IMG/VR virus record: IMGVR_UViG_3300031420_000399
Reading direction: 5' to 3' (one strand)
DNA length: 25,285 bases
Source: a virus
Lineage: Duplodnaviria > Heunggongvirae > Uroviricota > Caudoviricetes
Made by a program: the position numbers and the translations under genes. Below are positions 6,089 to 25,285 of this stretch, in pieces. The number at the start of each line of letters is the position of its first letter. The first letter of the stretch is position 1. The notes under the pieces are model-generated. The model was given only the letters and a program-made list of their open reading frames with translations. It was not told the origin of the DNA and searched no databases.

Positions 6089-6117
6089 TTGCGAATTGGG
6101 TGGCCATGGTGTACCGT
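6089..6117 (+). promoter_or_regulatory. SigA-type leaderless promoter of pncB
   Basis: TTGCGA (6089-6094), 17-bp spacer, TACCGT (6112-6117). ATG at 6125 follows 7 nt later with no SD. Confidence 0.6.
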
Positions 6118-6124
6118 TGATCGC

Positions 6125-7492
6125 ATGAGTACATTCAGCCCCCTGGAGTTCGACTTCAACTCCGAGCCTCATTCCCCCGCCCTGAAGCTCGACTTCTACG
6201 AGCTCACCATGGCCGCTGCAGCCCTGAAGGCAGGCACTGCCCACAAGCGCGCCACCTTCGAGCTCTTCGCTAGGAAGCTCCCCACGGGGCGACGCTATGG
6301 AGTCGTCGCGGGCGTGCAGCGAGCCATCGAAGCCGTACAGGACTTCATCTTCACCGAAGAGCAGCTCGACTACCTCTCCACGAAGCCCGGCATCACCGAA
6401 GAGCTCATCGACGAGCTCGCGACTTTCAGCTTCGAGGGTAGGCTCACCGGCTACCCCGAGGGTTCGCTCTACTTCCCCTACAGCCCCATCCTCCGGGTCG
6501 AGGGTACCTTCCTCGAGTGTGTGCTCCTCGAGACCGTGCTCCTCTCGATCTACAACCACGACTCGGCCATCGCATCGGCAGCTTCCCGCATGGTTCAGGC
6601 AACTCACGGGAAGTTCGGACTCATCGAGATGGGATCCCGACGGACCCATGAGGAATCTGCCATCGCCGTAGCTCGGGCTGCCTACATCGCAGGCTTCCAG
6701 GCAACTTCCAATGCTGAGGCTGGAATGCGCTACGATCTCCCGATCACAGGCACCGCAGCCCATGCCTTCACGCTCTCCTTCGAGGATGAGCGGGAGGCCT
6801 TCCGGGCTCAGATCGATGCCCTCGGAGTGAGCACGACTCTCCTCGTGGACACCTATGACATCCAGCAGGGGATCCGCAACGCCATCGAGGTGGCGGGCCC
6901 GAAGCTCGGCGGAATCCGCATCGACTCGGGCGATCTCCATGAGGAGACGGTGAAGGCTCGACAGCTCCTCGACTCCCTGGGCGCCACGGAGACGAAGATC
7001 ATCCTCTCCAGTGACATCGATGAGTACAGCCTCAGCGAGATGGTAGAGCGCGGCACCCCAGTGGACGGGGCAGGCGCCGGCACTCGAGTCGCAACCGGCT
7101 CCGGCCATCCGACCTGTGGTATGGTCTACAAGCTTGTGGAGCGTGAGGCCGAGGATGGCTCCATGGTTCCCGTGGCCAAGCGCGCCGCCGGAAAGAAGTC
7201 CCTGGGCGGACTCAAGACCCCCATGCGGACCTACGATGCTGACGGCCACTACAACCGGGAGATTCTCTTCACGGCAGCCAACGGCGATCCCCGCACCATC
7301 GCTACTCTGAAGGAAGAGATCCTGGAGCCTCAGCAGATCGAACTTCTTACTCCCGAAGGCTCAGACTATGACGGGAGCCTCAGGGCAGCTCAGGCGCGAC
7401 TCCGAGAGGAGCTCACTTGTCTTCCCGAAGAGGCCCTTTCTGTGATCGCTGGAGACCCCTTCCTCGAGGCTCAGCCCTACGAGTCGCACTGA
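6125..7492 (+). CDS. pncB: Nicotinate phosphoribosyltransferase, 455 aa
   Basis: Actinobacterial NAPRTase motifs: DFYELTM, FELFARKLP..RRYGVVAG, EMGSRRTHE, GTAAHAF (phospho-His), LLVDTYD, IRIDSGDL, ATGSGHPTCGMVYKLV. Start placed at 6125 from the promoter geometry. Confidence 0.95.
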   Translation: MSTFSPLEFDFNSEPHSPALKLDFYELTMAAAALKAGTAHKRATFELFARKLPTGRRYGVVAGVQRAIEAVQDFIFTEEQLDYLSTKPGITEELIDELATFSFEGRLTGYPEGSLYFPYSPILRVEGTFLECVLLETVLLSIYNHDSAIASAASRMVQATHGKFGLIEMGSRRTHEESAIAVARAAYIAGFQATSNAEAGMRYDLPITGTAAHAFTLSFEDEREAFRAQIDALGVSTTLLVDTYDIQQGIRNAIEVAGPKLGGIRIDSGDLHEETVKARQLLDSLGATETKIILSSDIDEYSLSEMVERGTPVDGAGAGTRVATGSGHPTCGMVYKLVEREAEDGSMVPVAKRAAGKKSLGGLKTPMRTYDADGHYNREILFTAANGDPRTIATLKEEILEPQQIELLTPEGSDYDGSLRAAQARLREELTCLPEEALSVIAGDPFLEAQPYESH

Positions 7493-7514: not shown

Positions 7515-8669
7515 ATGGCAACGAAGAAACGCTACAGCCTGACAAGCCCTCCGACCTTTGCTCCTGATGCACGACAGTGGGCCGACTCTTTCCGGCCAGG
7601 TCCCGGAGATGCTGAGGCTCACATCGACTCTCTGGGAACCCCGCTTTCGAATCACTGCATCTTCTGCGGACACGAGAGCGATGGGGATCCGCGGGATCAT
7701 ATCTTCCCCACATCTAAGGGAGGTCTCACCGTCCCCGGCAACATGCTTCGGACATGCCCCAAGTGCAACTTTGGCCGGCAGAACATTTCAGTGATCGACT
7801 TCTGGCGTCGGCAGGATCCAGCTACGCGCTGGTACAAGGATGAGAAGAGTTTCTTCGAGGCCTTCGAGCGACTCGTGGCGCCATTCAAGCGCGATTATCC
7901 TGAGCACTACGAGAGAGCTATGGCTATCCAGGAGGGTTCCCAGTCTGCCCTTGAGGAGCTCTACCGCATCGTTGCTGAGTATCAGTCAACGCTGCCTCGC
8001 TTCGAGTTCTTCTCAGATCAAAAGTCTGTGGCCAAGGGTCTCGAGGAGTTCTACCTGAAGACTGAGGGTTCCAAGCGGTCCCTGGACAACGCTTCTGCCT
8101 TTGCCAAGCTCAGCTCCCGAAATGACAGCTTTGCCCAGGCTGTAGTAAGGATTGCTGACAGCGCATCGGGCTCGAAGAGCACACAGCAGACCTTCCGCTC
8201 CAATGTGGCTCGCGCTGCTTTGGCCGCTGAGAAGTGCATCGACTTCGAAGCGAAGAAGTCCCAGCAGAAGAAGCAGCTGAAGCTCATGCTCACTGAGGCA
8301 AAGTCTGGAGGGGTAGTGACTCCCTACCGTAAGCTCTTCGAAGGATTGGGTAAGAAGCACAAGCACCTTGCTACCGTAGCTGCAGAAAAGGAGAGGGAGC
8401 TCAACAGAGAGGCATCAGCTGCTCAGACTAAGCTCCGCCAGGAAGCGCGCTTGACCATGGAGAACTTCCTCGAAGGTAAGCTCAAGGAAGTCACACCCAG
8501 AGATTCTCAGATGCTCGACTACGGCTTTGGCCACCCGAAGACCAATCGACTCGCTATCTTTGAGCGAGGCATCGATGAAGTCGCTTCTGGAAGAATTCAG
8601 TACCCCCAGGGCTACACTCCGAATGCAAAGGCTCGAGAGGCCATCAAGAGGCGCAGAACTCTGAGCTGA
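7515..8669 (+). CDS. HNH endonuclease domain protein with a long basic/helical C-terminal extension, 384 aa
   Basis: CIFCG...DHIFPTSKGG...GNMLRTCPKCN is the CxxC-HNH-CxxC (McrA/HNH_5-like) signature. AAGGA RBS. Confidence 0.85.
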   Translation: MATKKRYSLTSPPTFAPDARQWADSFRPGPGDAEAHIDSLGTPLSNHCIFCGHESDGDPRDHIFPTSKGGLTVPGNMLRTCPKCNFGRQNISVIDFWRRQDPATRWYKDEKSFFEAFERLVAPFKRDYPEHYERAMAIQEGSQSALEELYRIVAEYQSTLPRFEFFSDQKSVAKGLEEFYLKTEGSKRSLDNASAFAKLSSRNDSFAQAVVRIADSASGSKSTQQTFRSNVARAALAAEKCIDFEAKKSQQKKQLKLMLTEAKSGGVVTPYRKLFEGLGKKHKHLATVAAEKERELNREASAAQTKLRQEARLTMENFLEGKLKEVTPRDSQMLDYGFGHPKTNRLAIFERGIDEVASGRIQYPQGYTPNAKAREAIKRRRTLS

Positions 8670-10025: not shown

Positions 10026-10628
10026 ATGGCAACAGCTAAGAAAACCCAGAGAAAGCGCCGGGCGCTCCTCATCGTGGATGTCCAGGAGGACTTCGTGGAG
10101 GGCGGTAGCCTCGGAGTCGATGGAGGTCGGGAGCTCGCTGAGCGCATTGCTGTTGATCTCCTGCCTTCAGATTGCCCCTACGATCTGATCGTCACGACTC
10201 AGGACTGGCACATCGATCCGGGAACACACTTCTCTGATCAGCCAGACTTCGTTTCGAGCTGGCCGGTTCACTGCGTGGCCGGAAGCTCAGGTGCTGAGAT
10301 TCTCCCCGCGATCACTGACGCGCTGAAGCTCATTTCGACTCCCCAGGACAGGATCCTCAAGGGTCAGTACGAGGATGCCTACAGTGGATTCATGGGCGCC
10401 AACGGCTACGGCGATACGCTCGCTCAGGTTCTCAATGAGAGCGACATCGAGCGCGTGGATGTGGTGGGCATCGCCTCTGACCACTGCGTGGCTGCCACGG
10501 CCAGAGATTCAGCTGCAGAGGGATTCAGAACACGGGTGCTCAAGGACTACACAGTCGGCATCGATTCGAAGAGGATCGACGCGATCTACGATGTCGAGCT
10601 CCCCGGGCTAGGAATCAAGGTAGCATAG
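10026..10628 (+). CDS. pncA: Nicotinamidase/pyrazinamidase, 200 aa
   Basis: LIVDVQEDF..GGSL (catalytic Asp), TQDWH, WPVHCV.GS.GA (metal ligands), KGQYEDAYSGF (catalytic Lys), GIASDHCV (catalytic Cys). GGAGG RBS. Confidence 0.95.
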   Translation: MATAKKTQRKRRALLIVDVQEDFVEGGSLGVDGGRELAERIAVDLLPSDCPYDLIVTTQDWHIDPGTHFSDQPDFVSSWPVHCVAGSSGAEILPAITDALKLISTPQDRILKGQYEDAYSGFMGANGYGDTLAQVLNESDIERVDVVGIASDHCVAATARDSAAEGFRTRVLKDYTVGIDSKRIDAIYDVELPGLGIKVA

Positions 10629-11176: not shown

Positions 11177-11235
11177 GCCCGAAGATTTCCAGCGACACAG
11201 CATCACCTACACAGCTAGCGTAAGGAAGCACACCT

Positions 11236-13701
11236 ATGGCCAACGGAGATGACCAAGAGGTCACTGAGATCACTCCCGAAGAAAGCCAGAAGCTCAGAGA
11301 GCTCACTGACTCCATCGTGGAGACAACCGCAACGGAGGACCTCCACAGTGACATCCTCGAGCTCGCAGAGCCCGTTGTGGCTCTCGCTCGCAGCCTGGAG
11401 ACTTCTTCGAGGATGGCAGAAAGCCGCCACGGGCTCGAGGGAGCAGGCTGGGATTCCTTCGAGGTCTATCTGATCTTGAGCAACCTCATCGAAGACCTTC
11501 TCCTCACGGAGGATGAGCTCGAAGATGACAAGGCCGACGAGGTCGAAGGCCTCATCAGAACCAGGGCAGCGAGCTACAATGTGCCCCTGGCAGCGAGCGG
11601 AGAATCTGCTCCGCCTGTAGCCGACTTCGAGATCGACCGCATCTATGAAGCCCTCGCCCAGCGCATCGAGGATCTCGACAGGTCGATCGCCAGCCAGGAA
11701 CTCCTAGAGCTCTTCGGCGAAAAGCCCGCTCCAGACTTCGTCATCGAAGGCCGCGAGAATAGCTGGGCTGATCCGGCCGTAGTTGAGGCTGCCACCAACT
11801 TCTACCTCGGCTCAGTGAGCCCCGGGAGGCTCCGTGAGCTCATCGGAGAGGAAGCCGAAGAGCTCGCCAACAGCCCCGTGACGATCGGCTCGGCATCCTG
11901 GGACCTCCTCCCCGAGGACCTCAAGGCTATCCCGGACTACCTCGTTGAAAAGCTCAGCAGCCTTGGCCTGGGAGGTATTCACATCGGAACGGCTACTTCA
12001 CAGGACGATGAGCCAGTGTTCTGGGACATCGCCGACGAGTCCGGCACTGATTCGCTAGAGGACGATCTAAGCCCTCAGGAACCTGAGACGGACACGACCG
12101 ACGAAGGTGAGTGGGACCTCGCTGAGATCGCGCCAGGTGACGAGCTAGAGGATGATGGTGACTTTGCTCTGGGCTCCGGTGACGATTTCCAGGGAAACCA
12201 TGGCCACGATCACGGCTCCAACGGCCATGTGCATCAGATCCTCGACGGGGAACTCCGGGGACTCGACGACTACGACGGTGAACCGGCCAACGAGCTTGAG
12301 ACCGCGACCTTGGCGCTCATCGCAGAGGGTTTGATCTACGCTGAGCTCTCTGAGATCTTCCTCCAGGACCTGGTAGCAGAGGCCGATCCGCTGATCCTTC
12401 AGGCCCGGTCCCGTGGCTCAGACTGGTGGCTCACGAGCGAGGCCACCATGGCTGTTGCAGACCTGGTTTCTCAGGTGCTCCTTGCAACTGACTGGCCTCG
12501 CGATCTTTCCTCCGCAGAGGTTCTCGCTCACCGGGAAGAGCTCCAGAAGAGGGCTGCGATCTACCCCCTGGACCCGGAGCCCGAAGCTCCCACCAGAGCA
12601 GAGTCCCTTGGGGTTCCCTCGGTCAGCGAGCGATTCGACTTTCTCCGGAGAGAACGAGGAGAACGCACAGCGAACTCGCTCGTCGAGTCGGAGCTCAACG
12701 ATCTGAAGAACGCAGTGACAGGTCACCTCGGCTCCAACCCCACTGCCTTCCTCATCGAGGACCTCGGCGAGCTCCTCTCCGACGAACAGCTTGAGCGAGG
12801 CAGAACCTACGGGATCAGCCGGGCGCTTTGGAGGGAGATCTGGGCCCTCGGGGTTGAGCTCCTCCTCGGCATCGAAGCTGAGAGCGAAACGCTTCAGCCC
12901 AGGCTCGACGGAGCCCAGAGGTCAGCGCTGAATGCAGCTGCTCAGAGCTATCGAACCGACGAGTACACCGAGGAAGAGTTCCTCAAGCACTACGACTCCT
13001 CCCGTTGGCCCTCCTTCGGAGTGACGGTTGACCTGAGCATCTTCACCATCCGGGATGGGAAGCTTCAGGTGCTCCTCATCGAGCGGGGCAACCACCCCGA
13101 GAAGGGCAAGTGGGCACTCCCTGGAGGCTTCGTCAATCCCGATGAGTCTCTAGATCGGGCAGTCCGCCGGGAGCTCCAGGAAGAGACGGGTGTCGACCTC
13201 GAGGCTACCGGCTACCTTGAGCAGGTAAAGAGCTACGGCTACCCAGGTCGTGATCCCCGGGGATCTGTGGTCTCCACGCTCTACGCGGCACTGATCCCGA
13301 ACGATTACCTCCCCGAGCCAGAGGCTGCGGATGATGCCGCCAAGGCTCGTTTCGTTCCCGTGGAGGAAGCCCAGAGCAGCGGCTACACTCTTGCCTTCGA
13401 CCATGAGATGCTCCTCAGGGATGCGCTCCTCCGAATCCGCTCCAAGATCGAGTATTCGCCAGTGGTCTTCGATTTCCTCGACACGGAGCCCTTCACCATC
13501 GAAGAGCTTCGAGCTGTCTATGAGGCCGTCTGGGGCATGCAGATCCTCCCCTCTGATTTCAGGAGAAGGATCAGCCAGGCCCAGGGCGCACTGATCCCCG
13601 TTCCCAATGCCCGCGGCGAGGAGCCCCGCTGGTTCCGGGGCACGGCGAATCGCTTCTTCCCGCCCCTCGACATCCTCGAAGTTGAGTTCGTTCGGGAGTA
13701 G
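11236..13701 (+). CDS. NrtR-type Nudix hydrolase-winged helix protein fused to a ~590-aa acidic N-terminal region, 821 aa
   Basis: C-terminal ~230 aa: VTVDLSIFT, WALPGGFV, intact Nudix box GFVNPDESLDRAVRRELQEETGV, GRDPRG, LAFDH, and FTIEELRAVYEAVWG....SDFRRRI (NrtR-like wHTH). AAGGA RBS. Confidence 0.85.
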   Translation: MANGDDQEVTEITPEESQKLRELTDSIVETTATEDLHSDILELAEPVVALARSLETSSRMAESRHGLEGAGWDSFEVYLILSNLIEDLLLTEDELEDDKADEVEGLIRTRAASYNVPLAASGESAPPVADFEIDRIYEALAQRIEDLDRSIASQELLELFGEKPAPDFVIEGRENSWADPAVVEAATNFYLGSVSPGRLRELIGEEAEELANSPVTIGSASWDLLPEDLKAIPDYLVEKLSSLGLGGIHIGTATSQDDEPVFWDIADESGTDSLEDDLSPQEPETDTTDEGEWDLAEIAPGDELEDDGDFALGSGDDFQGNHGHDHGSNGHVHQILDGELRGLDDYDGEPANELETATLALIAEGLIYAELSEIFLQDLVAEADPLILQARSRGSDWWLTSEATMAVADLVSQVLLATDWPRDLSSAEVLAHREELQKRAAIYPLDPEPEAPTRAESLGVPSVSERFDFLRRERGERTANSLVESELNDLKNAVTGHLGSNPTAFLIEDLGELLSDEQLERGRTYGISRALWREIWALGVELLLGIEAESETLQPRLDGAQRSALNAAAQSYRTDEYTEEEFLKHYDSSRWPSFGVTVDLSIFTIRDGKLQVLLIERGNHPEKGKWALPGGFVNPDESLDRAVRRELQEETGVDLEATGYLEQVKSYGYPGRDPRGSVVSTLYAALIPNDYLPEPEAADDAAKARFVPVEEAQSSGYTLAFDHEMLLRDALLRIRSKIEYSPVVFDFLDTEPFTIEELRAVYEAVWGMQILPSDFRRRISQAQGALIPVPNARGEEPRWFRGTANRFFPPLDILEVEFVRE

Positions 13702-14340: not shown

Positions 14341-15036
14341 ATGCGAGTCATCATCGCCGAGTGCTCAGCAGTCTACTCAGGTAGAGGTGCAAGTACCCTG
14401 TCCCGGGGAATGCGCGCTATCTTCATCAAGAGTGACGGCTCAGTTTCGATCCACAATGACAATTCCAACAAGCCCCTGAACTACATGAAGACCGCTTCCC
14501 AGACGGAGACGGTCAACAGCGATGGGGAACAGGTCTGGACCTTCGATGCCCGCCATGAGACCCTGGAGATCACCATCCATGAGTCCATCGGCTTCTTCGA
14601 GCAGCAGCTCCTCGACAAGGGTACTGAGCCAGGCCTCAAGGTCGACGGTACTGAGGCCCAGCTTCAGCAGTGGCTCTTCGAGAATCCCGACCGGCTCGGC
14701 ACCGGCATCGTCACCCTTCAGCGAGAGTTCCAGACCGGCGCTGGTGCCGTGGATATCCTCGCAATCGGCCCCGACGGTCACCCCATCGCCGTTGAGATCA
14801 AGCGCACGGCCCCGACTGCAACTGCTGATCAGGTTCGCCGCTATGTGGAGAACATGCGAGTGCTCCCGCCTGCGAACTTCCCCCATCCCCACACTGGTGA
14901 GATCCTTGAGCTGGACTTCACGAAGACCACTGGGATGATCGCTGCCCTTGATCTTCGACCTAAGCTCGTCGACCTTGCCGCCAAGCGTGGAGTTCCGGCC
15001 ATCGAAGTTCCCGCCTATTGGAAGCTCGACAGTTGA
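14341..15036 (+). CDS. nucS: Mismatch-specific endonuclease NucS/EndoMS homologue, 231 aa
   Basis: MRVIIAECSAVYSGR, IKSDGSVSIH, KPLNYM, GL..DG.EAQLQ, REFQTGAGAVDIL, AVEIKR, DQVRRY match the actinobacterial NucS N-domain and RecB-like catalytic motifs. Confidence 0.9.
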   Translation: MRVIIAECSAVYSGRGASTLSRGMRAIFIKSDGSVSIHNDNSNKPLNYMKTASQTETVNSDGEQVWTFDARHETLEITIHESIGFFEQQLLDKGTEPGLKVDGTEAQLQQWLFENPDRLGTGIVTLQREFQTGAGAVDILAIGPDGHPIAVEIKRTAPTATADQVRRYVENMRVLPPANFPHPHTGEILELDFTKTTGMIAALDLRPKLVDLAAKRGVPAIEVPAYWKLDS

Positions 15037-15059: not shown

Positions 15060-15158
15060 ATGGCGCTGGGCCAATAGCTAGAGCCGGTTCACGGACGAGT
15101 GGCCTATGCTTTGGGACTAGCAGAATGCGTGAATTCGATCCGATGAGGGATGCCCACC

Positions 15159-16322
15159 ATGAAGTCTCCAAAGAAAAAGATCCTACTGAGCTTGGCTGCT
15201 GCAGCAGCTCTCCCAGTTCTCCTGGCCACAGCTAGTAGTCCAGCAGCTGCTGCGACTAACTTCTCATCCCTGTCCTCGAGCGCTAGCGTATCGGGCTCTA
15301 AGGTCACCGTCTCCAGCTCAGTGAAAGCTGCCTCGTCAGTCACCGTGCAGAACTACAAGGTCTGTATTCGAGATTCATCGGGAGCCAACCGGGATTTTCC
15401 CTCCGCTGGTAGAACAGTCATCAGCCGGACAGGAACGCCCTTCAGGGCAACTGCAACCTTTGCGCCGGGAAGCTACAGCTACTTTCCCTGTGTGCAGAAC
15501 ATGAACGGCAGCTGGTGGAATGGCCCCACGAAGAAGTTCGCCGTGGCAGCTTCGGCTTCTACCCCGGCTCCTACGCCCACTCCGGCTCCCAGTAACCCAG
15601 TGACAGATCCTCCCAGTGTCGCCATGCCAGTGGGTGACCTCCCCGGTTGGAAGCAGACCTTCAAAGAGGACTTCACCAAGGATGCAGCTCTAGGTCAGGT
15701 CGGCGCTGTCTACGGGCAGTCCATCCGGGGCTACGATGGCTTCAGTGACACTTCGGGTCACGGTACCTACGCTCCGGATAGGGTGCTCTCCGTGAAGGAT
15801 GGGAAGCTCAACTACGCTGTCCACAGTGAGAATGGCAGGCACCTTGTCGCAGCTCCTACCCTCAACGACTACAAGGGTCAGACCTATGGTCGCTACTCGA
15901 TTCGCTTCCGGGCAGACAGCATGCCTGGGTACAAGATCGCCTTCCTTCAGTGGCCAAGCAGCGACCAGTGGAATGAGGGCGAGATCGACTGGCCCGAGGG
16001 CAACCTTGACGATGGCATGATGCGACCAGCACTGGCCGTTCCTGGTACCTATAAGGACGGGACCATGAAGTTCGTCCCCGACAGGGAGATGTTCGCTAAG
16101 ACCAGCGCTAAGGACTGGCATGTGGCCACCACCGAGTGGACCCCATCCGGAATGAAGTGGTACTGGGACGGAGAGCTCGTAGCCTCGAGCACAGAGAAGC
16201 CCTCCACCAACTTCCGCTGGACACTCCAGGCAGAGACTGAGATCAACGGCAGAATTCCCGCCAACGATGTGAAGGGTAACATCGAAGTCGACTGGGCTAC
16301 TTCGTACAGCTACGCAGGCTGA
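15159..16322 (+). CDS. Secreted glycoside hydrolase family 16-like protein (signal peptide, Ig-like domain, Pro/Thr linker, GH16 domain)
   Basis: MKSPKKK plus a hydrophobic core and AAA signal peptide; PAPTPTPAP linker; W...F.EDF, YGRYSIRF, GEIDWPEG (E-x-D-x-x-E catalytic motif), WHVATTEWTP, WYWDG. Confidence 0.85.
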   Translation: MKSPKKKILLSLAAAAALPVLLATASSPAAAATNFSSLSSSASVSGSKVTVSSSVKAASSVTVQNYKVCIRDSSGANRDFPSAGRTVISRTGTPFRATATFAPGSYSYFPCVQNMNGSWWNGPTKKFAVAASASTPAPTPTPAPSNPVTDPPSVAMPVGDLPGWKQTFKEDFTKDAALGQVGAVYGQSIRGYDGFSDTSGHGTYAPDRVLSVKDGKLNYAVHSENGRHLVAAPTLNDYKGQTYGRYSIRFRADSMPGYKIAFLQWPSSDQWNEGEIDWPEGNLDDGMMRPALAVPGTYKDGTMKFVPDREMFAKTSAKDWHVATTEWTPSGMKWYWDGELVASSTEKPSTNFRWTLQAETEINGRIPANDVKGNIEVDWATSYSYAG

Positions 16323-16338
16323 TTCCAGCTGATACATC

Positions 16339-16384
16339 GTAAGGGCGTCGGAGCTTTCGAGCTTTGGCGCCCTTACTCTTGTTT
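16339..16384 (+). terminator. Intrinsic terminator
   Basis: GTAAGGGCGTC-GGAGCT-TTCG-AGCTTT-GGCGCCCTTAC long stem with a UUCG loop, followed by TCTTGTTT. Confidence 0.8.
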
Positions 16385-16436
16385 GAGCTGAAGATAGCTT
16401 AGTATTCCCGCTATCAACGCTTTCATTGGAACTTAT

Positions 16437-19400
16437 GTGAAGCCTTTCAAGTTTCGGTATCATAGCAAGGTACGCCGAGCTAGGGAGCCCGACTTGAATT
16501 TTCAGAAGCTGTCATCTGGACTGCTACGATCTGTAGGAATGATCGCAGCAGCTTCTCTTTTAACTGGCTTAGCTGTCACCACGCCCACGGTTGCTAAAGC
16601 GGAATCGATTGAGCCTTCAGCTTCAAGTACTGCCTCAGCTTCGCCCTATTCGGAGTCTGAACCGGTTGCTTCTCAGCAAGCTACCGTAACTCAAAGCACA
16701 CCTCAATCTCAGTACTCCTTTTCCATCAGTGCTGACAGATCGGTCTTCTATACGGATGACCAGACTCCCAAGATCTCCATCGACCCGGGGAATCTCCCTG
16801 AAGACATTGCTGGCGGATGGTCTTCCGCCTACATGCTGTACTACATCGATGTAAGTACTCAAAAAGTGTTTTATGCGGGTGGATCTGCAAAATACGAAAT
16901 GAAGATTCCGCGCTTTACCAGGGATCCCTCCAAGACCTTTAAAGTGGTTGTTGCTAAGGCAGGTGGCGCTGGCTATAACACACTACCAGTTAGTCAGCTA
17001 ACTGATGTGATTGCTGAAAGCAATGAGATTACCATCGAACGGGGTAAGTGGGAGCTAACAATTGATAGCCAGCCCGACCATGTAGCTCCGGGTATATACA
17101 GAGACGAGGCTGTGGGGATCAGCTGGGAGACTAATCAGCCTATTAGCATGAGCTACCTGTCCATAGATGGGTTTGATCCTTATTACTCTATCTACTACAA
17201 AAACCTCAACACTGGAAAAATCACACAAGACCCTCCCGTTGGCTATGGCACGCTGAAAGATAGTCAACGGTTTGTGGCCGCAGAGGACGAGACTGCTAGG
17301 TACCAGTTCTACATCGCAAAGCGCTCAGATCCTACTCTTACCTCCGTTGATCAGTTCGAAGATGTTCAGGCAACTAGCAAAGTGATCGTGGTTCCTCCAC
17401 GGAAGTGGGGCGTGAAGCTCGGTGAGGCTACAAGCACCCCTCCTCAGGCTGGATTTAAGTCAGTAAGTCTGCCCTACACTGAAACTAGGTACATCACTGA
17501 GTCCCGGCTACAAGCGTTCTATGTGGAGGATGCAGCCTCAGGAAAGATCATTCGCACCTTCAGCGGTACGAATGTTCCGAACCCTCTTCAATTTACTGCT
17601 GATGAAGATGCTAACAGCTTCATCGTTCATGTTGCTAAGGTCGGACAAACCGTAGAGTACGCCTCTGAGCTTCAGTATCTTCAGACATCTAGCAACGAAA
17701 TTTACCCCGAAAGCGTTCCGGCGTCTAGCCAAGACTACTTCAATTCTGGCAGATTCCAGAATGGCTCCAATCCCGCAACTGCAGATTGTCAGCAACAGTG
17801 CTATGGGGATCCGATCAACTCTCTCAACGGTGAGCTCTTCGAGAACTCGGTCGATCTTGAGACAGATGGCGCCATCGGCCTGAACTTTGTTCGATCCTAC
17901 TCTAGCCTTCGGAGCGCTCAAGACGGTCCGTTTGGCCATGGCACAACCTTCAGCTACAACATGGCCATCCGAGGCAACAAGTCAAATCTGGACGATTCCA
18001 GTAGGCTTACAGTCATGCAGGAGAACGGCTCCACTGTGAGCTTCTCGGCGAGCGAAGAGGACGGCAAGCGAACCTTTTCGGCGCCTGCAGGTTTCCGAGC
18101 GACTCTCTCCGTCGATTCAACTGGAAACTATCTCTTCACTCGGACACAGAATCAGGACCAATTCAACTTCAATAGTGCCGGTGTGCTCACGAAAGTCATT
18201 GATCGCCTCGGCAATGAGGTCAGTCTGAGCTATACCGAGGGAAAGCTCTCAGCTGTAAGCAACGGTGTGAGCACCGTGACGATCAATTGGTCTGGTGGTT
18301 TTGTCAGTTCGATCACGGATGGTGCTCACACAGTGAGCTACAGCTACTCTTCCGGTAATCTTACTGAGGTCACGGACAGCAGGATAGCAGCTAAGAAGAA
18401 GTACAGCTACTACTCTGACAACCGAATCAAGACCATCACTCACCCCAACGGCGGAGTATACCAGACCTCTTACGGTTCGGACGGAAGAGTTAGCTCTCAA
18501 ACGGATCCTCGAGGTGGTGTAACCAGCCTTAGCTACGGCAGTGATCTTTACAACTCTGTGACTCAGATCACCCTTCCAGATGGTTCCAAAACTGTGGAGA
18601 GCTACGACAGTGACGGAAGGCTTGTTCAGCGAACCTTTGCTAAGGGAACAGCCGACGAGAAGAGCTATAGATTTAGCTATTCAGCAAAAGGAGATCTAAC
18701 GGCTCAGACTTCTCCCAGTGGTTTGGCAATCAACTACCGCTACGACAGCAGAGGTAATCTGATCTACCTTTCTAGCCCCGAGGGGTCTATCTACAGATTT
18801 GAGTACAATGATCAGAATCTGCTGACTAGAACTTTCAATCCGGCAGGTCAGATTTCGACCAACGAGTACAGTCCTGCTGGTGTGTTGCTCAAGAGCACCG
18901 ACTACGCTGGCAAAGTGACAAGCTTTGAGCACAACAACAAGGGCATGCTCACTGGTATCAAGGATCCCAACGGCCAAAAGACTGGACTGAGCTCAACCTA
19001 CGGCTATGATGATTCAGATCTTCTCAAGTCCACCACTGACACCCGTGGCAAGATCACCAAGTTCAGCTACGACAGCTCTCGGAATCCAGTGAAGATCACG
19101 GATGCTCTGGGCAACGAAACTGAGTTCAGCTACGCCAATGGCAATCCGGCACTCATCGAGCAGATTCGCTACGAGAACGGCTCCGTAGAGCAATTCTCCT
19201 ACGACGGTGCAGGTCGGCCAGTAGAAGCCATCGCCAAGGATGGCACCAAGACTCAGCGCAGCTACGATAGCATGGACAACCTGGTCAGTGTCACAACTCC
19301 CTACGGGACTACGATCTACAAGTACGACTCGAATCAGCGGCTGATCTCTGTGACCAACCCCAAGGGTGCGAAGGTCTCCTACGAATACACCGGCCTGGGT

Positions 19401-21800
19401 CTCCTCAAGAAGCAAAATCTACCCAACGGTAAGTCCACTTCAAAGGAGTATAGCACAGACGGACTTCTATCTGCAGATGTGGACAGTGCTGGCAATCGTA
19501 CTCTCTACGGCTACGGCGCAGACGGTAGGCTTGAGAAAGTCATCGATCCAGCTGATGGATTGACTCAGTTCAGCTACGACAAGCTGGGAAACATCACCCA
19601 GAAGGTCACTCCTGCTGGTATCTGGACGAACTACAGCTACACAGCATCCAACCAGCTCAAGTCCATGGACGAGAAAAGCCTTCGAAAGACTACCTACAGC
19701 TACGACAATAGCGGCAACCTCACCAAGACCCGCTACGCCGACGGCACAAGTGAACTACGGAGCTATGACTCTGAGGACAATCTAGCTGAGGTGACTGACC
19801 GGGAGGGAAAGGTCACAGCCTACAGCTACGACGGGCTCAACAGGATCTCGAAGGAAACTCGAGCAGATCAGAGTGAAGTCGGCTACAGCTACGATTCGGT
19901 CGGCAATCTGCTCTCGAAGGACTATGGCAGTGGCCATGTCTACGAGAATAGCTACAATCTCAAGGATCAGCTCCTCGAGTCGACCACACCCGAGGGCCTC
20001 ACCACTGAGTACAGCTACAATCCTGCGGGTGAGCTGACTTCTCGAGGGCCACCCCAGAGCAAGGTTAGCTACCAGTACAACAGCTACGGCGAAATCACCT
20101 CTGTAGGCTACCCTTCGGGCACTGCTGTGGACTACAGCTACGACGGGCTCGGGAATCTACAGGATGTCAGCAGCGCGGGAGATGTGCTTGCGAGCTACTC
20201 CTACGACGGTCGCTACAATCTCAGCGGATCGAGCTACGGCAACGGCACCACCGAGACCACTGAGTTCGATGCACTGAACAGGGCTAAGAAGTTTACCGTT
20301 GCCAAGGGCGCCGATGAACTCTACAGCAGGTCGCTGAACTTCAATGCCGACAGTCAGATCAGCAAGGCTGTTTCTAGCTTTGACGGAACTGTCGATCAGA
20401 GCAAGTCCTACCAGTACAGCGACTTTAGGACCATCAGCTCTTCCAGGGATGAGCTCAAGAATGAGACACAGTCTCACGGCTACGATCTCCTCAACAATCT
20501 GAAGTCCCTGGGTTCGAACAGCTACAGCTACGATGGCGCTTCGAGCAGGGTTGCGCAGGCCACAATCGGAGGTGTGGCCCAGAGCTACAGCTACGATGGC
20601 CGAGGCAATCGTACGCAGCTGAGTGATCCCTCGAAGACCGTGAGCTACGGCTGGAGCAAGTCCGATGAGCTCAAGTCGGTGAAGCTCTCCCCCACCAAGA
20701 CCGTCGGCTACGACTATGATGCGGAGGGGCTCCTTACGAGTCGCTCAGTCACCGGTGGGGCAGACGAGAGCTTCAGCTGGGACACTGTTTCAGGCTCTGT
20801 TCCCGTGCTCCTTGAGGACTCAGGCTTCGACTACATCTACGGCGCAGACTCCACGCCCTTCCTGCAGATCGAGAAGTCCACCGGAAAGCGCACCTATCTC
20901 TACGGCGATGAGCGTGGCAGCGTGGTGCTCGCCACCGACGAGGCTGGATCTTCCCTCTGGCACAGGGACTACGATGAGTACGGCTCGAAGTTCACACAGA
21001 CTCCCACTCCAGGGGCAGTAGGAACAGCAGAGGCGCGCTTTGGCTACGCTGGTGAATATCTCGATCCCGATACGGGTCTGTACAATCTGAGGGCCCGCTG
21101 GTACGATCCTAGCACTGCTAGCTTCCTCAGTCCCGACCCTGCGCTGCTTGTGACCGGAGAGCCCTACTCCTACGGTAGTGGTGATCCACTGAGCTACACG
21201 GATCCTCTGGGCCTTTGGTCCACCAAGGACACAGCCAACGCTGTAGCTGGAGCCATCGACGGCTTCATCGGTTTCCCGGTGGCGGCCTCGATCTCAAACG
21301 CCATCAACCCTGGCTCTGTGGACAGCTGCTCAGCTACCTACAAGGTTGCTAGCGCTGTAGGCACGGTAGGGTCACTCCTGGTCCCAGGATTTGGGGCAAT
21401 CAAGGGGGCGAGTCTCACTGCCAAGGGCATCGGGCTAGCGAGTAGGTCAGTCGGTAAGGTAGCACAGTTTGCTCCTGAAGCAAGTTCGGTTGCTAGCTTG
21501 TTCGAGAAACAGGTAGTATATAGGGCAGTGGGATTAGATGAGTTCAATGACTTAGCTATTCATGGAGCGTTCAGGGTCAAGGGTAATGCTATGGAAGGTG
21601 GAAAGTACTTCTTTAGCGATAAAAAGCAAGCTCTTGATTTTGCTGACTTTGACAAAAGCGTCGTAGCAGTGTTTTCAGCTAAAATAAAGAAAATCGAGTG
21701 GGAGAAATTGCCATCTAGACTTTCGTGGGTTGAGTCCTCTGGCAGGTTTGTGCCAGAACATGATTTGATCGGCCTTACAGGAATTGAGCATATGCTATGA
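16437..21800 (+). CDS. Secreted Rhs/YD-repeat polymorphic toxin, up to 1787 aa (start uncertain: GTG 16437 or downstream)
   Basis: Signal-like segment (GMIAAASLLTGLAVTTPTVAKA); GDPINSLNGE...FVRSYSS...GPFGHG (DUF6531-like); many YSYD..G.L YD repeats; core motif RFGYAGEYLDPDTGLYNLRARWYDP...FLSPDP...YTDPLGL (cleavage motif at 21201); variable C-terminal tip. Confidence 0.95.
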   Translation: MKPFKFRYHSKVRRAREPDLNFQKLSSGLLRSVGMIAAASLLTGLAVTTPTVAKAESIEPSASSTASASPYSESEPVASQQATVTQSTPQSQYSFSISADRSVFYTDDQTPKISIDPGNLPEDIAGGWSSAYMLYYIDVSTQKVFYAGGSAKYEMKIPRFTRDPSKTFKVVVAKAGGAGYNTLPVSQLTDVIAESNEITIERGKWELTIDSQPDHVAPGIYRDEAVGISWETNQPISMSYLSIDGFDPYYSIYYKNLNTGKITQDPPVGYGTLKDSQRFVAAEDETARYQFYIAKRSDPTLTSVDQFEDVQATSKVIVVPPRKWGVKLGEATSTPPQAGFKSVSLPYTETRYITESRLQAFYVEDAASGKIIRTFSGTNVPNPLQFTADEDANSFIVHVAKVGQTVEYASELQYLQTSSNEIYPESVPASSQDYFNSGRFQNGSNPATADCQQQCYGDPINSLNGELFENSVDLETDGAIGLNFVRSYSSLRSAQDGPFGHGTTFSYNMAIRGNKSNLDDSSRLTVMQENGSTVSFSASEEDGKRTFSAPAGFRATLSVDSTGNYLFTRTQNQDQFNFNSAGVLTKVIDRLGNEVSLSYTEGKLSAVSNGVSTVTINWSGGFVSSITDGAHTVSYSYSSGNLTEVTDSRIAAKKKYSYYSDNRIKTITHPNGGVYQTSYGSDGRVSSQTDPRGGVTSLSYGSDLYNSVTQITLPDGSKTVESYDSDGRLVQRTFAKGTADEKSYRFSYSAKGDLTAQTSPSGLAINYRYDSRGNLIYLSSPEGSIYRFEYNDQNLLTRTFNPAGQISTNEYSPAGVLLKSTDYAGKVTSFEHNNKGMLTGIKDPNGQKTGLSSTYGYDDSDLLKSTTDTRGKITKFSYDSSRNPVKITDALGNETEFSYANGNPALIEQIRYENGSVEQFSYDGAGRPVEAIAKDGTKTQRSYDSMDNLVSVTTPYGTTIYKYDSNQRLISVTNPKGAKVSYEYTGLGLLKKQNLPNGKSTSKEYSTDGLLSADVDSAGNRTLYGYGADGRLEKVIDPADGLTQFSYDKLGNITQKVTPAGIWTNYSYTASNQLKSMDEKSLRKTTYSYDNSGNLTKTRYADGTSELRSYDSEDNLAEVTDREGKVTAYSYDGLNRISKETRADQSEVGYSYDSVGNLLSKDYGSGHVYENSYNLKDQLLESTTPEGLTTEYSYNPAGELTSRGPPQSKVSYQYNSYGEITSVGYPSGTAVDYSYDGLGNLQDVSSAGDVLASYSYDGRYNLSGSSYGNGTTETTEFDALNRAKKFTVAKGADELYSRSLNFNADSQISKAVSSFDGTVDQSKSYQYSDFRTISSSRDELKNETQSHGYDLLNNLKSLGSNSYSYDGASSRVAQATIGGVAQSYSYDGRGNRTQLSDPSKTVSYGWSKSDELKSVKLSPTKTVGYDYDAEGLLTSRSVTGGADESFSWDTVSGSVPVLLEDSGFDYIYGADSTPFLQIEKSTGKRTYLYGDERGSVVLATDEAGSSLWHRDYDEYGSKFTQTPTPGAVGTAEARFGYAGEYLDPDTGLYNLRARWYDPSTASFLSPDPALLVTGEPYSYGSGDPLSYTDPLGLWSTKDTANAVAGAIDGFIGFPVAASISNAINPGSVDSCSATYKVASAVGTVGSLLVPGFGAIKGASLTAKGIGLASRSVGKVAQFAPEASSVASLFEKQVVYRAVGLDEFNDLAIHGAFRVKGNAMEGGKYFFSDKKQALDFADFDKSVVAVFSAKIKKIEWEKLPSRLSWVESSGRFVPEHDLIGLTGIEHML

Positions 21801-22535: not shown

Positions 22536-23753
22536 ATGACGACAGATCTACGAACAGAGAGCAGCACCATGACAGCAGGGAACCACTACGACCTCCTCGT
22601 AGTAGGAGCGGGACTCTTCGGTCTCACCGTGGCCGAGCACGCAGCCAGCGAGGGCCATCGCGTCCTCGTCCTCGAGCGCCGGGAGCACATCGGAGGCAAC
22701 GCCTACGACGAGCTCAACGAGGAGACCGGCGTGACCAAGCACATGTACGGCTCCCACCTCTTCCACACTTCCAACGAGAAGGTCTGGGACTACCTCAACC
22801 GCTTCACCGAGTTCGCTCCCTACGAGCACCGGGTCTTCGCCAACAGCGAGGGGCAGGTCTACTCCTTCCCCATGAACCTCGGGCTCATCGGCCAGGTCTA
22901 CGGCAAGTACTTCACCCCAGAAGAGGCCAAGGCGCTCATCGCACAGGAGGCCTCTGAGATCGACTCCGCCGACGCCAAGAACCTCGAAGAGAAGGCCATC
23001 AGCCTCATCGGCCGGAAGCTCTACGAGAAGTTCATCGCAGGCTACACGGCCAAGCAGTGGCAGACCGATCCCAAGGAGCTCGATGCCTCGATCATCACCA
23101 GGCTCCCCGTGCGCTACAACTTCGATGCTCGCTACTTCAATGACCGCTTCCAGGGTCAGCCCGCCCGGGGCTACACGGCCATGTTTGAGGCCATGGCAGC
23201 CCACCCGAACATCGACATCCGCTACGGCGTAGACTACCTCGCAGGCCGTGCTGAAGGCCGCTACGACGGCATCCCCACCGTCTACACCGGCCCCCTGGAC
23301 GAGTACTTCGGCTACGAGCTCGGAAGGCTCCCCTGGCGCACGGTCGATCTCATCGACGAGGTCGTAGATGTGGATGATTTCCAGGGCACTGCAGTGATGA
23401 ACTACAACGACCGGGATGTGCCCTTCACTCGGATCCTTGAGCACCAGCACTACGACCCTCAGGCAGCTGAGAACAAGGTTGACGGCAAGACCATCATCAC
23501 CCGGGAGTACTCGCGCTTCGCCGAGCCGGGCGACGAGGTCTACTACCCGATCAACAGCGATGAGGTCCGAGAGCTCGCAGCTGCCTACAAGGCCAAGTCC
23601 AAGGCTGAGGAGGATCACAATGTGTTCTTCGGAGGGCGCCTATCGCAATACCTGTACATTGACATGCATCAGGCTGTGAGCAGCGCCATGCACCTTTACA
23701 GCAAGAAGGTGGGCCCTCTCCTGGCCGATCATGCAACTTCTAGCGAAGGGTAA
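22536..23753 (+). CDS. glf: UDP-galactopyranose mutase, 405 aa (alternative start 22569)
   Basis: FAD motif VVGAGLFG..VA, ERREHIGGNAYD, H.YG.HLFHT, GYTAKQW, RLPVR...D.RYFND.FQG.P..GYT, YTGPLDEYF, YPIN, GRL..Y.Y.DMHQA. Confidence 0.95.
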   Translation: MTTDLRTESSTMTAGNHYDLLVVGAGLFGLTVAEHAASEGHRVLVLERREHIGGNAYDELNEETGVTKHMYGSHLFHTSNEKVWDYLNRFTEFAPYEHRVFANSEGQVYSFPMNLGLIGQVYGKYFTPEEAKALIAQEASEIDSADAKNLEEKAISLIGRKLYEKFIAGYTAKQWQTDPKELDASIITRLPVRYNFDARYFNDRFQGQPARGYTAMFEAMAAHPNIDIRYGVDYLAGRAEGRYDGIPTVYTGPLDEYFGYELGRLPWRTVDLIDEVVDVDDFQGTAVMNYNDRDVPFTRILEHQHYDPQAAENKVDGKTIITREYSRFAEPGDEVYYPINSDEVRELAAAYKAKSKAEEDHNVFFGGRLSQYLYIDMHQAVSSAMHLYSKKVGPLLADHATSSEG

Positions 23754-23759
23754 GTAGCC

Positions 23760-25285
23760 ATGCTGGGCTGTAGCGAGATCCGAGAGATAGACCAGGATCT
23801 CGCTACAGCCTTCTTAAGCGCTTCATCGACCGTTACGCTTTCGTCTAGCTCAGAGCCTGCCACCCTGGTGCTCAACCTCGGTGCCTTCGAAGATGAAGAA
23901 TTAATTGCTCTTGCTCGCTTCGCTTATCCGACGAGTGAAGCGCTCAAATCTCTCTATTCTGTAGAAGTTTTTGCGCTTGCTCGTGAGGAAGGTTACGAAA
24001 GCTCGATCTTCGTCGAGCTTTTAGAGGTATTCGTTCGTGAGCGTAAGCCCAATGATGTAGTGATCTTAGACACTCTAGCCGAGCACTTTGATCTTTCCAC
24101 TTCGGGTTTCGCTTTGAGTGCAGATCTCAAGGAACTTGGAGTTAGTGCTCATTCTTGGATTCATCCGGAACGAACCTACTACACCTACAAGATAACTGCC
24201 GGCGACAGTGACAAGTACTACTACGGCGTGAGTCATCTGAAGCTTTCAAACGCCAGTCGCGCTCAGTGCCTGGAACACAACTACTGGGGCAGTGGCTCTG
24301 TTCGATTCCAAAACTGGAAATCGAAGCACAGTGATACACTCAAGAAAGAGGTGCTTCAAGTCTTTCACCGAAAAGCTCTAGCCTATCGGGCAGAGGAAGA
24401 GCTTGTGGGCGACTTCTATATCTCTGACTCAAACTGCTTAAACTCTGTCCGAGGAGGACTTCGACCTTTCCATGTGACTAAGCTTGGAGAAATGGCTCTC
24501 TGCGAATTCCATGGTCAAACTATGCACACTCCAACCGGTCTCTGTCGCAAGTGCGCATCAACTAAAGTCTTCAGCACTTCTTTCTGCGACACCCATGGCT
24601 TGACGGTATTCAGGAGCGATTACTGTGACAGGTGTCGCTATGAGTCGTCTAGAAAGACCGGGATTTGTGAATCGCACGGATCTTGGTCTTCGACTTCTGG
24701 TTGTTCTAGATGCGCAGCTGAATCTGCGCTGTCGGTGAGCGAGTGCGAGATTCACGGGGCCACGATGTTCCGTGGATCTCAGTGTGCCCGCTGTAACTCA
24801 GCTTCGATGTACTCTAAGCAGACCTGTGCGATTCATGGTGAAGTCGCGTTCCAAGACGGCAGCTGCGTGAGCTGCAGGGTTGCGAGAATGACTACCCAGG
24901 AAGTCTGCGAGCTCCACGGTGAGACCGTCCACCAAGGAGGCACCTGTCGAAAGTGTGCTAGCTCTACTATGCACCACGAAGCTATCTGCGAGATCCACGG
25001 TCAGGCCACTTTCCGAGGGGACTATTGCCTCAGGTGTGTCAACAGCCGAAACTTCGAAGAGCTCGAGTGCTCTAAGCACGGGCTGACAACCCATCACAAG
25101 GGCAAATGCAGTCGCTGCCACTCAGAGAGTAACTACACCGAGCGTGAGTGCGAAGTCCACGGTCTCACGAAACATCAGGGTCAGCACTGTCTCAGATGCA
25201 AGCGAGTGGCCGAGTACTCGGTGGAAGAGTGTGAAGTTCACGGCGAAGTGAAGCACCGGAAGGGTAAGTGTCAGAAGTGCGCTGT
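23760..25285 (+). CDS. GIY-YIG (Seg-like) endonuclease fused to at least 10 tandem CxxHG-x7-9-CxxC repeats; runs off the window (not in the supplied ORF track)
   Basis: Manual translation from ATG 23760 is open for more than 508 codons. At 24177-24455: YYTYKITAGDSDKYYYGVSH...YWGSG...KKEVLQVF...AYRAEEELV...CLNSVRGG. Cys/His repeats begin at 24501. Confidence 0.9.
   Translation, partial: MLGCSEIREIDQDLATAFLSASSTVTLSSSSEPATLVLNLGAFEDEELIALARFAYPTSEALKSLYSVEVFALAREEGYESSIFVELLEVFVRERKPNDVVILDTLAEHFDLSTSGFALSADLKELGVSAHSWIHPERTYYTYKITAGDSDKYYYGVSHLKLSNASRAQCLEHNYWGSGSVRFQNWKSKHSDTLKKEVLQVFHRKALAYRAEEELVGDFYISDSNCLNSVRGGLRPFHVTKLGEMALCEFHGQTMHTPTGLCRKCASTKVFSTSFCDTHGLTVFRSDYCDRCRYESSRKTGICESHGSWSSTSGCSRCAAESALSVSECEIHGATMFRGSQCARCNSASMYSKQTCAIHGEVAFQDGSCVSCRVARMTTQEVCELHGETVHQGGTCRKCASSTMHHEAICEIHGQATFRGDYCLRCVNSRNFEELECSKHGLTTHHKGKCSRCHSESNYTERECEVHGLTKHQGQHCLRCKRVAEYSVEECEVHGEVKHRKGKCQKCA
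24501..25285 (+). repeat. Coding tandem repeat array, ~81-bp (27-aa) period, 10 units visible
   Basis: First-Cys codons at 24501, 24585, 24666, 24744, 24825, 24906, 24987, 25068, 25149 and 25230. Units include CEIHGATMFRGSQCARC, CELHGETVHQGGTCRKC and CEVHGLTKHQGQHCLRC. Confidence 0.92.

Follow-up and report, generated by a model that had tools for sequence, protein, structure and literature searches.

A probable Seg-type homing-endonuclease gene with a ten-unit zinc-finger-type array behind glf in a giant-phage-like genome

Gene X, an open reading frame (ORF) at the end of a 25,285-nt stretch of Caudoviricetes DNA (IMG/VR record IMGVR_UViG_3300031420_000399, here called the window), is best explained as an intact, free-standing homing-endonuclease gene of the Seg type, with a GIY-YIG nuclease domain, located behind glf (the gene for UDP-galactopyranose mutase) in an ACGT-free genome resembling those of giant phages. 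We put the probability of this reading at about two in three. We infer that the C-terminal array of X binds zinc and DNA, and that X cleaves its target and is actively homing. The array, ten 27-amino-acid (aa) zinc modules with the ligands Cys, His, Cys and Cys (CHCC), would bind an extended DNA site, located at or close to the end of glf (its 3' side), in relatives that lack X, and the GIY-YIG domain, held on a short flexible linker, would cut close to the array-bound site. The break would then be repaired by recombination from an X-bearing genome, and X would be copied in together with about 180 nt of flanking glf. A Mom-like GNAT domain at the N-terminus would be an accessory module that is also used by other phage homing nucleases and that is shortened and decaying in X.

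Domain architecture of gene X

Gene X occupies positions 23760..25285 and, like its domains and the adjoining features of glf, lies on the plus strand. It is interrupted by the end of the window, and the frame (23760..25283) is still open at its 3' end, as the original prediction, made from the window sequence, had stated. The window holds 508 codons. Since a metagenomic protein that is 99% identical to X (P0002) is 517 aa long, nine codons and the stop of X lie beyond the window. A Shine-Dalgarno-like GAAGGG, read from the junction, is found at 23745..23750, 10-15 nt before the start codon of X and inside the end of glf. The glf gene spans 22536..23753, with its TAA stop at 23751-23753, and is the conserved upstream neighbour of X in all five X-bearing lineages. 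An AlphaFold2 model of X, calculated from 120 homologues, reached a mean predicted local distance difference test score (pLDDT) of 92.8. Three domains were distinguished: a degenerate and shortened Mom-like domain of GNAT fold (aa 1-135; 23760..24164), identified by structure comparison and by homologues that match Pfam PF25680; a Seg/I-TevI-type GIY-YIG nuclease domain (aa 136-240; 24165..24479), identified by PHROG match, structure and conserved residues; and a zinc-finger-type array of ten CxxHG-x8-CxxC units with a 27-aa period (aa 248-507; 24501..25280), identified from the sequence and the model. The nuclease domain and the array are joined by a short linker modelled with lower confidence (aa 241-247; 24480..24500; pLDDT about 71). 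The original prediction had overlooked the 135-aa domain in front of the GIY-YIG domain.

The Seg-like character proposed for the nuclease domain was supported by several searches. PHROG 314, annotated 'homing endonuclease', matched X with an E value of 1.2e-10, and when Pfam was run on 60 homologous domains, SegE_GIY-YIG matched 7 of them (best E 1.5e-6) and GIY-YIG matched 3. A separate model of the domain (pLDDT 93.7) had I-TevI as its top match in the Protein Data Bank (PDB; 1ln0_A, Z 7.5, root-mean-square deviation (rmsd) 2.6 A over 81 of 92 residues), followed by PD-T4-3 (Z 6.3), EndoII (4.8) and UvrC (4.3); HIGLE, Slx1 and Eco29kI were matched as well. Foldseek also ranked I-TevI first (probability 0.96), and Seg-like phage endonucleases superposed on the domain at an rmsd of 2.3-2.6 A and about 26% identity. 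In an hhalign alignment of the family profile with I-TevI, Y143 corresponded to Y6 and Y154 to Y17. At least 90% of the family retain Y141, Y143, Y153, Y154 and G156, the last of which is invariant in the domain alignments. E212, in the third helix, is also conserved in at least 90% of members, and N228, in the CLN motif, is invariant; these two were matched to E75 and N90 of I-TevI by the order of secondary-structure elements rather than by residue-level superposition. The other family-conserved residues are Y175, G177, S178, G179, W186, K196, G232 and G233, and every family-invariant GIY-YIG residue is present in X. Judged from the model, the nuclease domain belongs to the Seg/I-TevI branch of the GIY-YIG superfamily, with a three-stranded sheet and flanking helices that superpose on solved domains.

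The long CHCC-type array that had been noticed behind the nuclease domain was found again, with the pattern CxxHG-x7-9-CxxC in each unit. The CxxHG motifs start at aa 248, 276, 303, 329, 356, 383, 410, 437, 464 and 491, so the predicted period of 27 aa is near-strict (spacings of 28, 27 and 26, followed by six of 27), and the count, which had been given as at least ten, is exactly ten. The array contains 30 of the 33 cysteines of X, and all 30, together with all ten ligand histidines, are retained. Any two units have 35-51% of their nucleotides and 26-41% of their residues in common, and Tandem Repeats Finder detected no DNA-level repeat in the array; this divergence indicates that the array is old, in agreement with the original prediction.

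Secondary structure assigned to the AlphaFold2 model by DSSP was the same for each unit: a strand, the CxxH knuckle, a second strand, a turn, and a CxxC that enters a helix of 7-8 residues. The strand following each helix continues into the first cysteine of the next unit. Each unit is therefore predicted to be treble-clef-like, with a zinc knuckle, a beta-hairpin and a helix N-terminus that would provide the last two ligands, an assignment taken from a model made without zinc. The units are not of the C2H2 type: their ligands are C, H, C and C, and the last pair is found at the start of a helix instead of as histidines at its end. No Pfam model covered the 27-aa unit in X or in the homologues scanned, and hmmscan of X at E values up to 1 returned only a sub-threshold match to DZR_2. 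Sequence searches of the PDB with X, a three-unit profile and a GIY profile gave chance-level matches only (Mdm2 RING with E 0.05, PilF and penicillin acylase).

Residues 1-135 matched many GNAT acetyltransferases in VIA-align with Z scores of 10-11. Among these matches was Mom of phage Mu (8bv8_B; Z 10.5, rmsd 3.2 A, 131 aa), which ties with many generic GNAT enzymes. Foldseek also supported a GNAT fold, and GNAT folds dominated the matches in whole-model structure searches. In longer homologues the domain extends to about 205 aa and matches Pfam PF25680 (Mom); PF25680 did not match X, in which the domain is 135 aa long. The domain is acidic in X (net charge -17), and it is missing from 32 family members and from the glf-linked protein P0012. 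Hef-like HNH homing endonucleases from jumbo phages and Campylobacter phages likewise have a Mom-like module as their C-terminal part, and in tblastn searches cultured phages were matched only by the Mom-like domain of a longer homologue.

Gene X at the glf locus and its family at other loci

Gene X, or an orthologue 53-62% identical to it, stands directly behind glf in five lineages, in the window and in the related contigs L001/L002, L003, L090/L091, L092 and L096. Its start ranges from a 4-bp overlap with glf (L090, L096) to 8 nt downstream, and at least five lineages, with identities of only 53-62%, retain an intact frame. The L096 protein is a 283-aa form that has neither the GNAT domain nor units 2-5. 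Alleles of glf lacking the ORF, whose existence the original prediction had presupposed, were found among the closest glf loci of the JGI metagenome collection: syntenic relatives without X are L098 (glf 91% identical), L100, L101 and L102 (78%). A further relative, L099 (glf 88% identical), has only a remnant of X directly after the glf stop, namely its first 22 codons (11205-11270; 15 of 22 residues identical). The gene that follows X encodes 242 aa in L001, and the corresponding ORF in L099 encodes 174 aa, with an N-terminus resembling a lipoprotein signal peptide. In a poorly resolved glf tree, both of the loosely supported groupings mix X-bearing and X-less genomes. Exact-sequence look-ups of the window glf and of the gene downstream of X returned no further alleles.

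The comparison of the window with its sister contig L001 showed an abrupt change of divergence close to X. Up to position 23582, 99 of 993 nt differ in glf (about 10%), and from 23583 to the end of the window only 14 of 1703 nt differ (0.8%; 0.7% in X alone). The change-point lies 178 nt upstream of X, inside the 3' end of glf, and the glf end and the 6-nt spacer behind it (23583..23759) form a low-divergence tract that resembles a product of co-conversion. On a longer time scale the relation is reversed: X is 55% and glf 83% identical at the amino-acid level, and X evolves much faster. Because X normally changes faster than glf, its near-identity beside a glf that has diverged by 10% points to a recent recombination event that had its breakpoint 178 nt upstream of X. 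Such a break is just what homing with co-conversion would leave, and it matches published observations that nuclease genes lie at the boundaries of genetic exchange between phages (PMC10448857). Even if the array follows no recognition code, intact, truncated, remnant and empty alleles at one site and a sharp recombination boundary would make this locus a clear example, from giant uncultured phages, of how homing genes come and go in nature, and the X-less glf alleles offer concrete substrates for a cleavage test.

The differences between X of the window and X of L001 are unevenly placed. Eight of the 11 fall in the first 531 nt, which cover the GNAT-like part and the beginning of the nuclease domain, and three in the remaining approximately 1000 nt (segments compared, 23847-24290 and 24291-25285).

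To relate the array to the locus, four full-length glf-linked proteins were compared with their units paired by position. The units are positionally orthologous, with identities of 0.50-0.77 on the diagonal and 0.12-0.50 off it. Among these orthologues the array is the best conserved part (62-65% identity), followed by the nuclease domain (55-60%) and the GNAT domain (about 24%). Family members at other loci have GIY-YIG domains that are 55-63% identical to that of X, as close as those of the glf-linked orthologues, yet only 26-35% of non-ligand residues are shared in their zinc units, compared with 52-60% in the glf-linked set. In these alignments the sequence of the array follows the locus and that of the nuclease domain does not. 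Family-wide, positions 15, 18 and 10 of the unit are the most variable, and the same three are well conserved between orthologous units; they gave the strongest unit-identity signal in 498 protein pairs. They are located in the beta-hairpin and within or just after the CxxC at the start of the helix, and by analogy with other treble-clef DNA-binding domains they are a plausible base-contacting surface. Arrays of the family are basic, with a median net charge of +2 per unit. The same array type is also fused to an unrelated DUF559/Vsr-like nuclease, and in a sister viral cluster of the ESM Atlas Mom and GIY-YIG domains are combined, in an order that was not seen, with NUMOD3, which is known as a DNA-binding motif of homing endonucleases.

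These comparisons lend indirect, evolutionary support to a role of the array as the DNA-targeting part of X. The original prediction had gone further and offered two models, a modular DNA-recognition array following the logic of engineered zinc-finger nucleases and transcription activator-like effectors (TALEs), or a processive DNA-wrapping scaffold. A targeting role is backed indirectly, by arrays that track the locus, by the hypervariable positions 10, 15 and 18 and by the basic charge of the family; a unit code of the zinc-finger nuclease or TALE kind is not, and nothing was found in favour of the wrapping scaffold. It remains a tentative idea, and one we regard as unlikely, that the 27-aa CHCC array is a modular, code-like reader in which every unit contacts the same small number of base pairs, chiefly by way of positions 10, 15 and 18, and in which 5-14 units together specify targets tens of base pairs long and can be rearranged to retarget the nuclease. 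If this were true, X would be a natural counterpart of zinc-finger nucleases from a prokaryotic virus, compact and built of 5-14 short modules with few variable positions. About 200 natural variants, each with an identifiable insertion site, would then be material for working out the recognition code.

The family to which X belongs is rare, unnamed and uncharacterised. A three-unit profile searched against 1.84 billion representative proteins found about 150 at E values up to 1e-3, 126 of them below 1e-10. Of 248 sequences collected, 178 have the Mom-like, GIY-YIG and array domains and 32 have GIY-YIG and the array; a survey of copy number and fused domains, as had been suggested, gave 5-14 units per array and, besides these partners, a few DUF559/Vsr-like fusions. 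In the latter (P0216, P0227 and P0223) a distant array is N-terminal and the DUF559/Vsr-like nuclease, of the PD-(D/E)xK type, C-terminal, and two unrelated nuclease folds are therefore used with such arrays. No database source names the family proteins, and NCBIfam gave no match for X. With tblastn, X matched nothing in 50,697 GenBank phage records or 72,556 PLSDB plasmids, scans of GTDB genomes found no relative in those searched, and profile A4 had no match among the 401 Actinomycetota genomes sampled or in the three genomes with the nearest cellular glf. No description of the family was found in the literature on Mom with GIY-YIG and zinc ribbon, on 'HMPTM' or on DUF4379. The nearest ESM Atlas clusters are all viral.

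In phage-like contigs, members at other loci adjoin the gene for the ribonucleotide reductase (RNR) large subunit (L095) or RecA (L093), or lie near those for SSB and RecA (L094). In the phage-like contig L089 (3243-10927), dnaE is split into two ORFs, one of them with an intein, and a clamp-loader gene and the family member P0019 are placed between them. The 309-kb IMG/VR viral record G405 (L005/L006) holds three full copies at 28.6, 217.9 and 220.2 kb, whose open frames encode 588, 529 and 647 aa; one pair of copies is in tandem, approximately 2 kb apart. Four paralogues of the family occur in one 828-kb contig.

Alternatives to a homing gene

A number of observations weigh against an active homing gene. 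In a Pfam scan of X at E values up to 1, no GIY-YIG match was obtained (PF01541, PF19835). No conserved arginine was detected at the distance expected for the catalytic Arg (R27 of I-TevI), where the hhalign alignment covers the GIY...YIG hairpin only; from their invariance, W186 and K196 could be stand-ins for it. The array of X carries a charge of only +0.7 per unit (+7 over ten units) and is far less basic than the family median. The L099 indel did not remove X cleanly, since the N-terminal half of the next gene is also replaced. The divergence break could instead stem from import of a foreign cassette on the glf/RHS side, the two genomes being nearly identical in all else. Because the window stops within X, only the left boundary of the low-divergence tract is in view; four independent contigs all break inside glf, which fits homing and glf-side import alike. 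A domesticated operon gene could also hold such a fixed position behind glf, which it overlaps by 4 bp in two lineages. Finally, the seven nonsynonymous and four synonymous changes between the window and L001 copies of X may reflect relaxed constraint.

The position behind glf leads to a first alternative, in which X is a domesticated or weaponised nuclease kept there to cut rival phages, satellites or the DNA of the host, for exclusion or defence; the array would be aimed at a foreign target, and the Mom-like domain might sense or modify DNA. Such a role would agree with the conservation of the position in five lineages, including the overlaps in L090 and L096, with the ACGT-free genome that carries X, with the rank of the GIY-YIG restriction enzyme PD-T4-3 as second-best structural match, and with the published co-option of homing-nuclease domains in phage-satellite conflicts (PMC10448857). 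Nevertheless, no PADLOC model matched X, and one distant homologue matched 'homing endonuclease' models only. Relatives without X, with a remnant or with a truncated copy fit a dispensable selfish gene, there is no conserved partner gene, and the breakpoint lies exactly at the flank of X. The Mom-like domain, moreover, is shortened and only 24% conserved among orthologues. We consider this alternative improbable.

A second alternative retains the nuclease and takes another view of the array, as a stiff ruler or spacer, a DNA clamp lacking specificity, or a scaffold for protein or RNA; specificity would then reside in another part, such as the nuclease or the GNAT domain. A precedent is the one zinc finger of I-TevI, which serves as a distance determinant (a linker or ruler) and does not read bases. 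The continuous beta-strands that join consecutive units in the model suggest a stiff rod, the array of X has a low charge, and no DNA-bound zinc module was among the structural matches of the whole model, which were GNAT-dominated, or of the GIY-YIG domain. An array that does not read sequence is harder to reconcile with unit-specific residues that are kept in glf-linked orthologues and are wholly different at other loci with equally similar nucleases, or with hypervariability concentrated at positions 10, 15 and 18, beside the ligands and at the helix start. The arrays of the family as a whole are basic, and the GNAT domain is missing from 32 members and from P0012. This second alternative seems to us about as improbable as the first.

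The least probable alternative, that X is a relic without activity, a homing gene decaying towards loss whose frame has stayed open by chance, could appeal to the short and fast-diverging N-terminal domain, the 7:4 ratio of changes, the remnant and truncated forms in relatives and the canonical Arg that was not identified, but it is very unlikely given a 517-codon frame kept open in at least five lineages only 53-62% identical, the retention of all 30 array cysteines, ten ligand histidines and all family-invariant GIY-YIG residues, an array conserved at 62-65% among orthologues, and the near-identity of the window and L001 copies despite about 10% glf divergence, which argues for recent spread.

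Genome context and comparison with known systems

The tetranucleotide ACGT does not occur in the window, where 53 ± 7 copies were expected. It is also absent from L001-L003, L090-L092, L096, L098, L099, L101 and L102, and L100 has two copies; the genomes with other family members are not ACGT-free. All large ORFs of the window are on one strand and most have no family match. Related contigs extend to 307-674 kb, and X probably resides in a giant, phage-like genome. A bacterial chromosome was considered on account of NucS, a RecN-like SMC protein and NrtR, and was dropped in view of the many ORFs without family, their common strand and the lack of ACGT.

Between NucS (14341-15036) and glf lies a variable cassette (15150-21800) of lower GC content with a gene for a GH16 protein and one for a 1787-aa RHS-repeat protein. 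In L101 an ORF of 1795 aa matches the end of the RHS gene of the window at about 74% DNA identity, L099 has two GH16 genes in the segment from NucS to glf, and in L090 and L098 NucS is directly before glf. A NAD-salvage cluster of the window comprises NAMPT-like (6089-7492), isochorismatase/nicotinamidase (10026-10628) and Nudix-NrtR (11236-13701) genes. Inside it is an ORF of 384 aa for an HNH_5 endonuclease (7515-8669), which may be a second homing-type gene of the window. Downstream of X, L001 (2805-10561) has a block of conserved same-strand ORFs of 242, 436, 95, 168, 144, 306, 134, 124, 128 and 324 aa; the block had no Pfam match and three weak PHROG matches of unknown function, and its assignment to a phage head module found no support in PHROGs or Pfam. 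Between lineages that share 82% identity in glf, the 306-aa protein has an identity of 43%.

With the Seg proteins of T4 (SegA-G; PF19835) and with I-TevI (1LN0/1MK0), X has in common the catalytic fold, with its Y..Y/YYG hairpin and its conserved Glu and Asn, and the arrangement of catalytic domain, linker and C-terminal DNA-binding region, which is putative in X. Seg-type genes, like X, are free-standing and tucked between conserved genes, and their flanking markers are co-converted, which has its counterpart in the co-conversion-like tract next to X. The differences are found in the binding region and in details of the nuclease. Seg proteins and I-TevI use NUMOD or helix-turn-helix modules, I-TevI has one zinc finger, and none has a long zinc-finger array, whereas X has ten units. 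Between the YIG motif and the helix that follows, the X family also carries an inserted CL.DGY.GSG, and the canonical Arg was not located in X.

The Mom-like GNAT-fold module is common to X, Mom of phage Mu (PDB 8BV8) and the Hef-like HNH homing endonucleases. It is C-terminal to the HNH nuclease in the Hef-like enzymes and N-terminal to the GIY-YIG nuclease in X. The module of X is shortened (135 aa), acidic and below Pfam detection, and its presence implies no DNA-modifying activity.

Eukaryotic C2H2 poly-zinc-finger proteins, engineered zinc-finger nucleases and TALEs resemble X in having tandem units of 27-34 aa, few hypervariable positions on a conserved scaffold and, where one is joined, a nuclease. 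The units of X differ from C2H2 fingers in their CHCC ligands and in the predicted order of their elements, which is treble-clef-like rather than beta-beta-alpha. The resemblance is one of analogy, not of homology, and a recognition code in X is hypothetical.

The closest published design is that of the T5orf172 phage homing endonucleases with repeated CapR/DUF723/DUF4397 zinc-finger DNA-binding domains, such as gp165 and gp174 of Vibrio phage ICP1 and their relatives (Netter 2021 PMC8096241; Barth, Dunham & Seed 2023 PMC10448857). The novelty that the original prediction had attached to the array was therefore overestimated, as repeated zinc-finger modules on GIY-YIG-like phage homing nucleases had already been described (PMC10448857). 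In these proteins the number of modules varies, repeats are lost in frame, and the nuclease and binding parts evolve separately (PMC10448857, PMC8096241). Both the T5orf172/CapR type and X combine a GIY-YIG-like nuclease with several tandem zinc-finger modules thought to give specificity, and the X family is similar in its varying module number, its repeat loss, the separate evolution of its parts and, at the glf locus, a probable location at a boundary of exchange. Unit numbers are 5-14 in the X family and at least six in the example of Barth 2023. The T5orf172 domain had no Pfam match in X or in the homologues scanned, and neither DUF723 nor DUF4397 was matched when X and seven of its homologues were scanned with Pfam models at E values up to 1 and 0.1, among which the authors' custom CapR profile was not included; the sole DUF4379 match fell in the C-terminal tail of a homologue, beyond its array of 27-aa units. 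The overall design of X has thus already been published. X departs from it in having a nuclease of the Seg/I-TevI branch, placed N-terminal to the array, in the 27-aa CHCC unit and its copy number, and in the added Mom-like GNAT domain.

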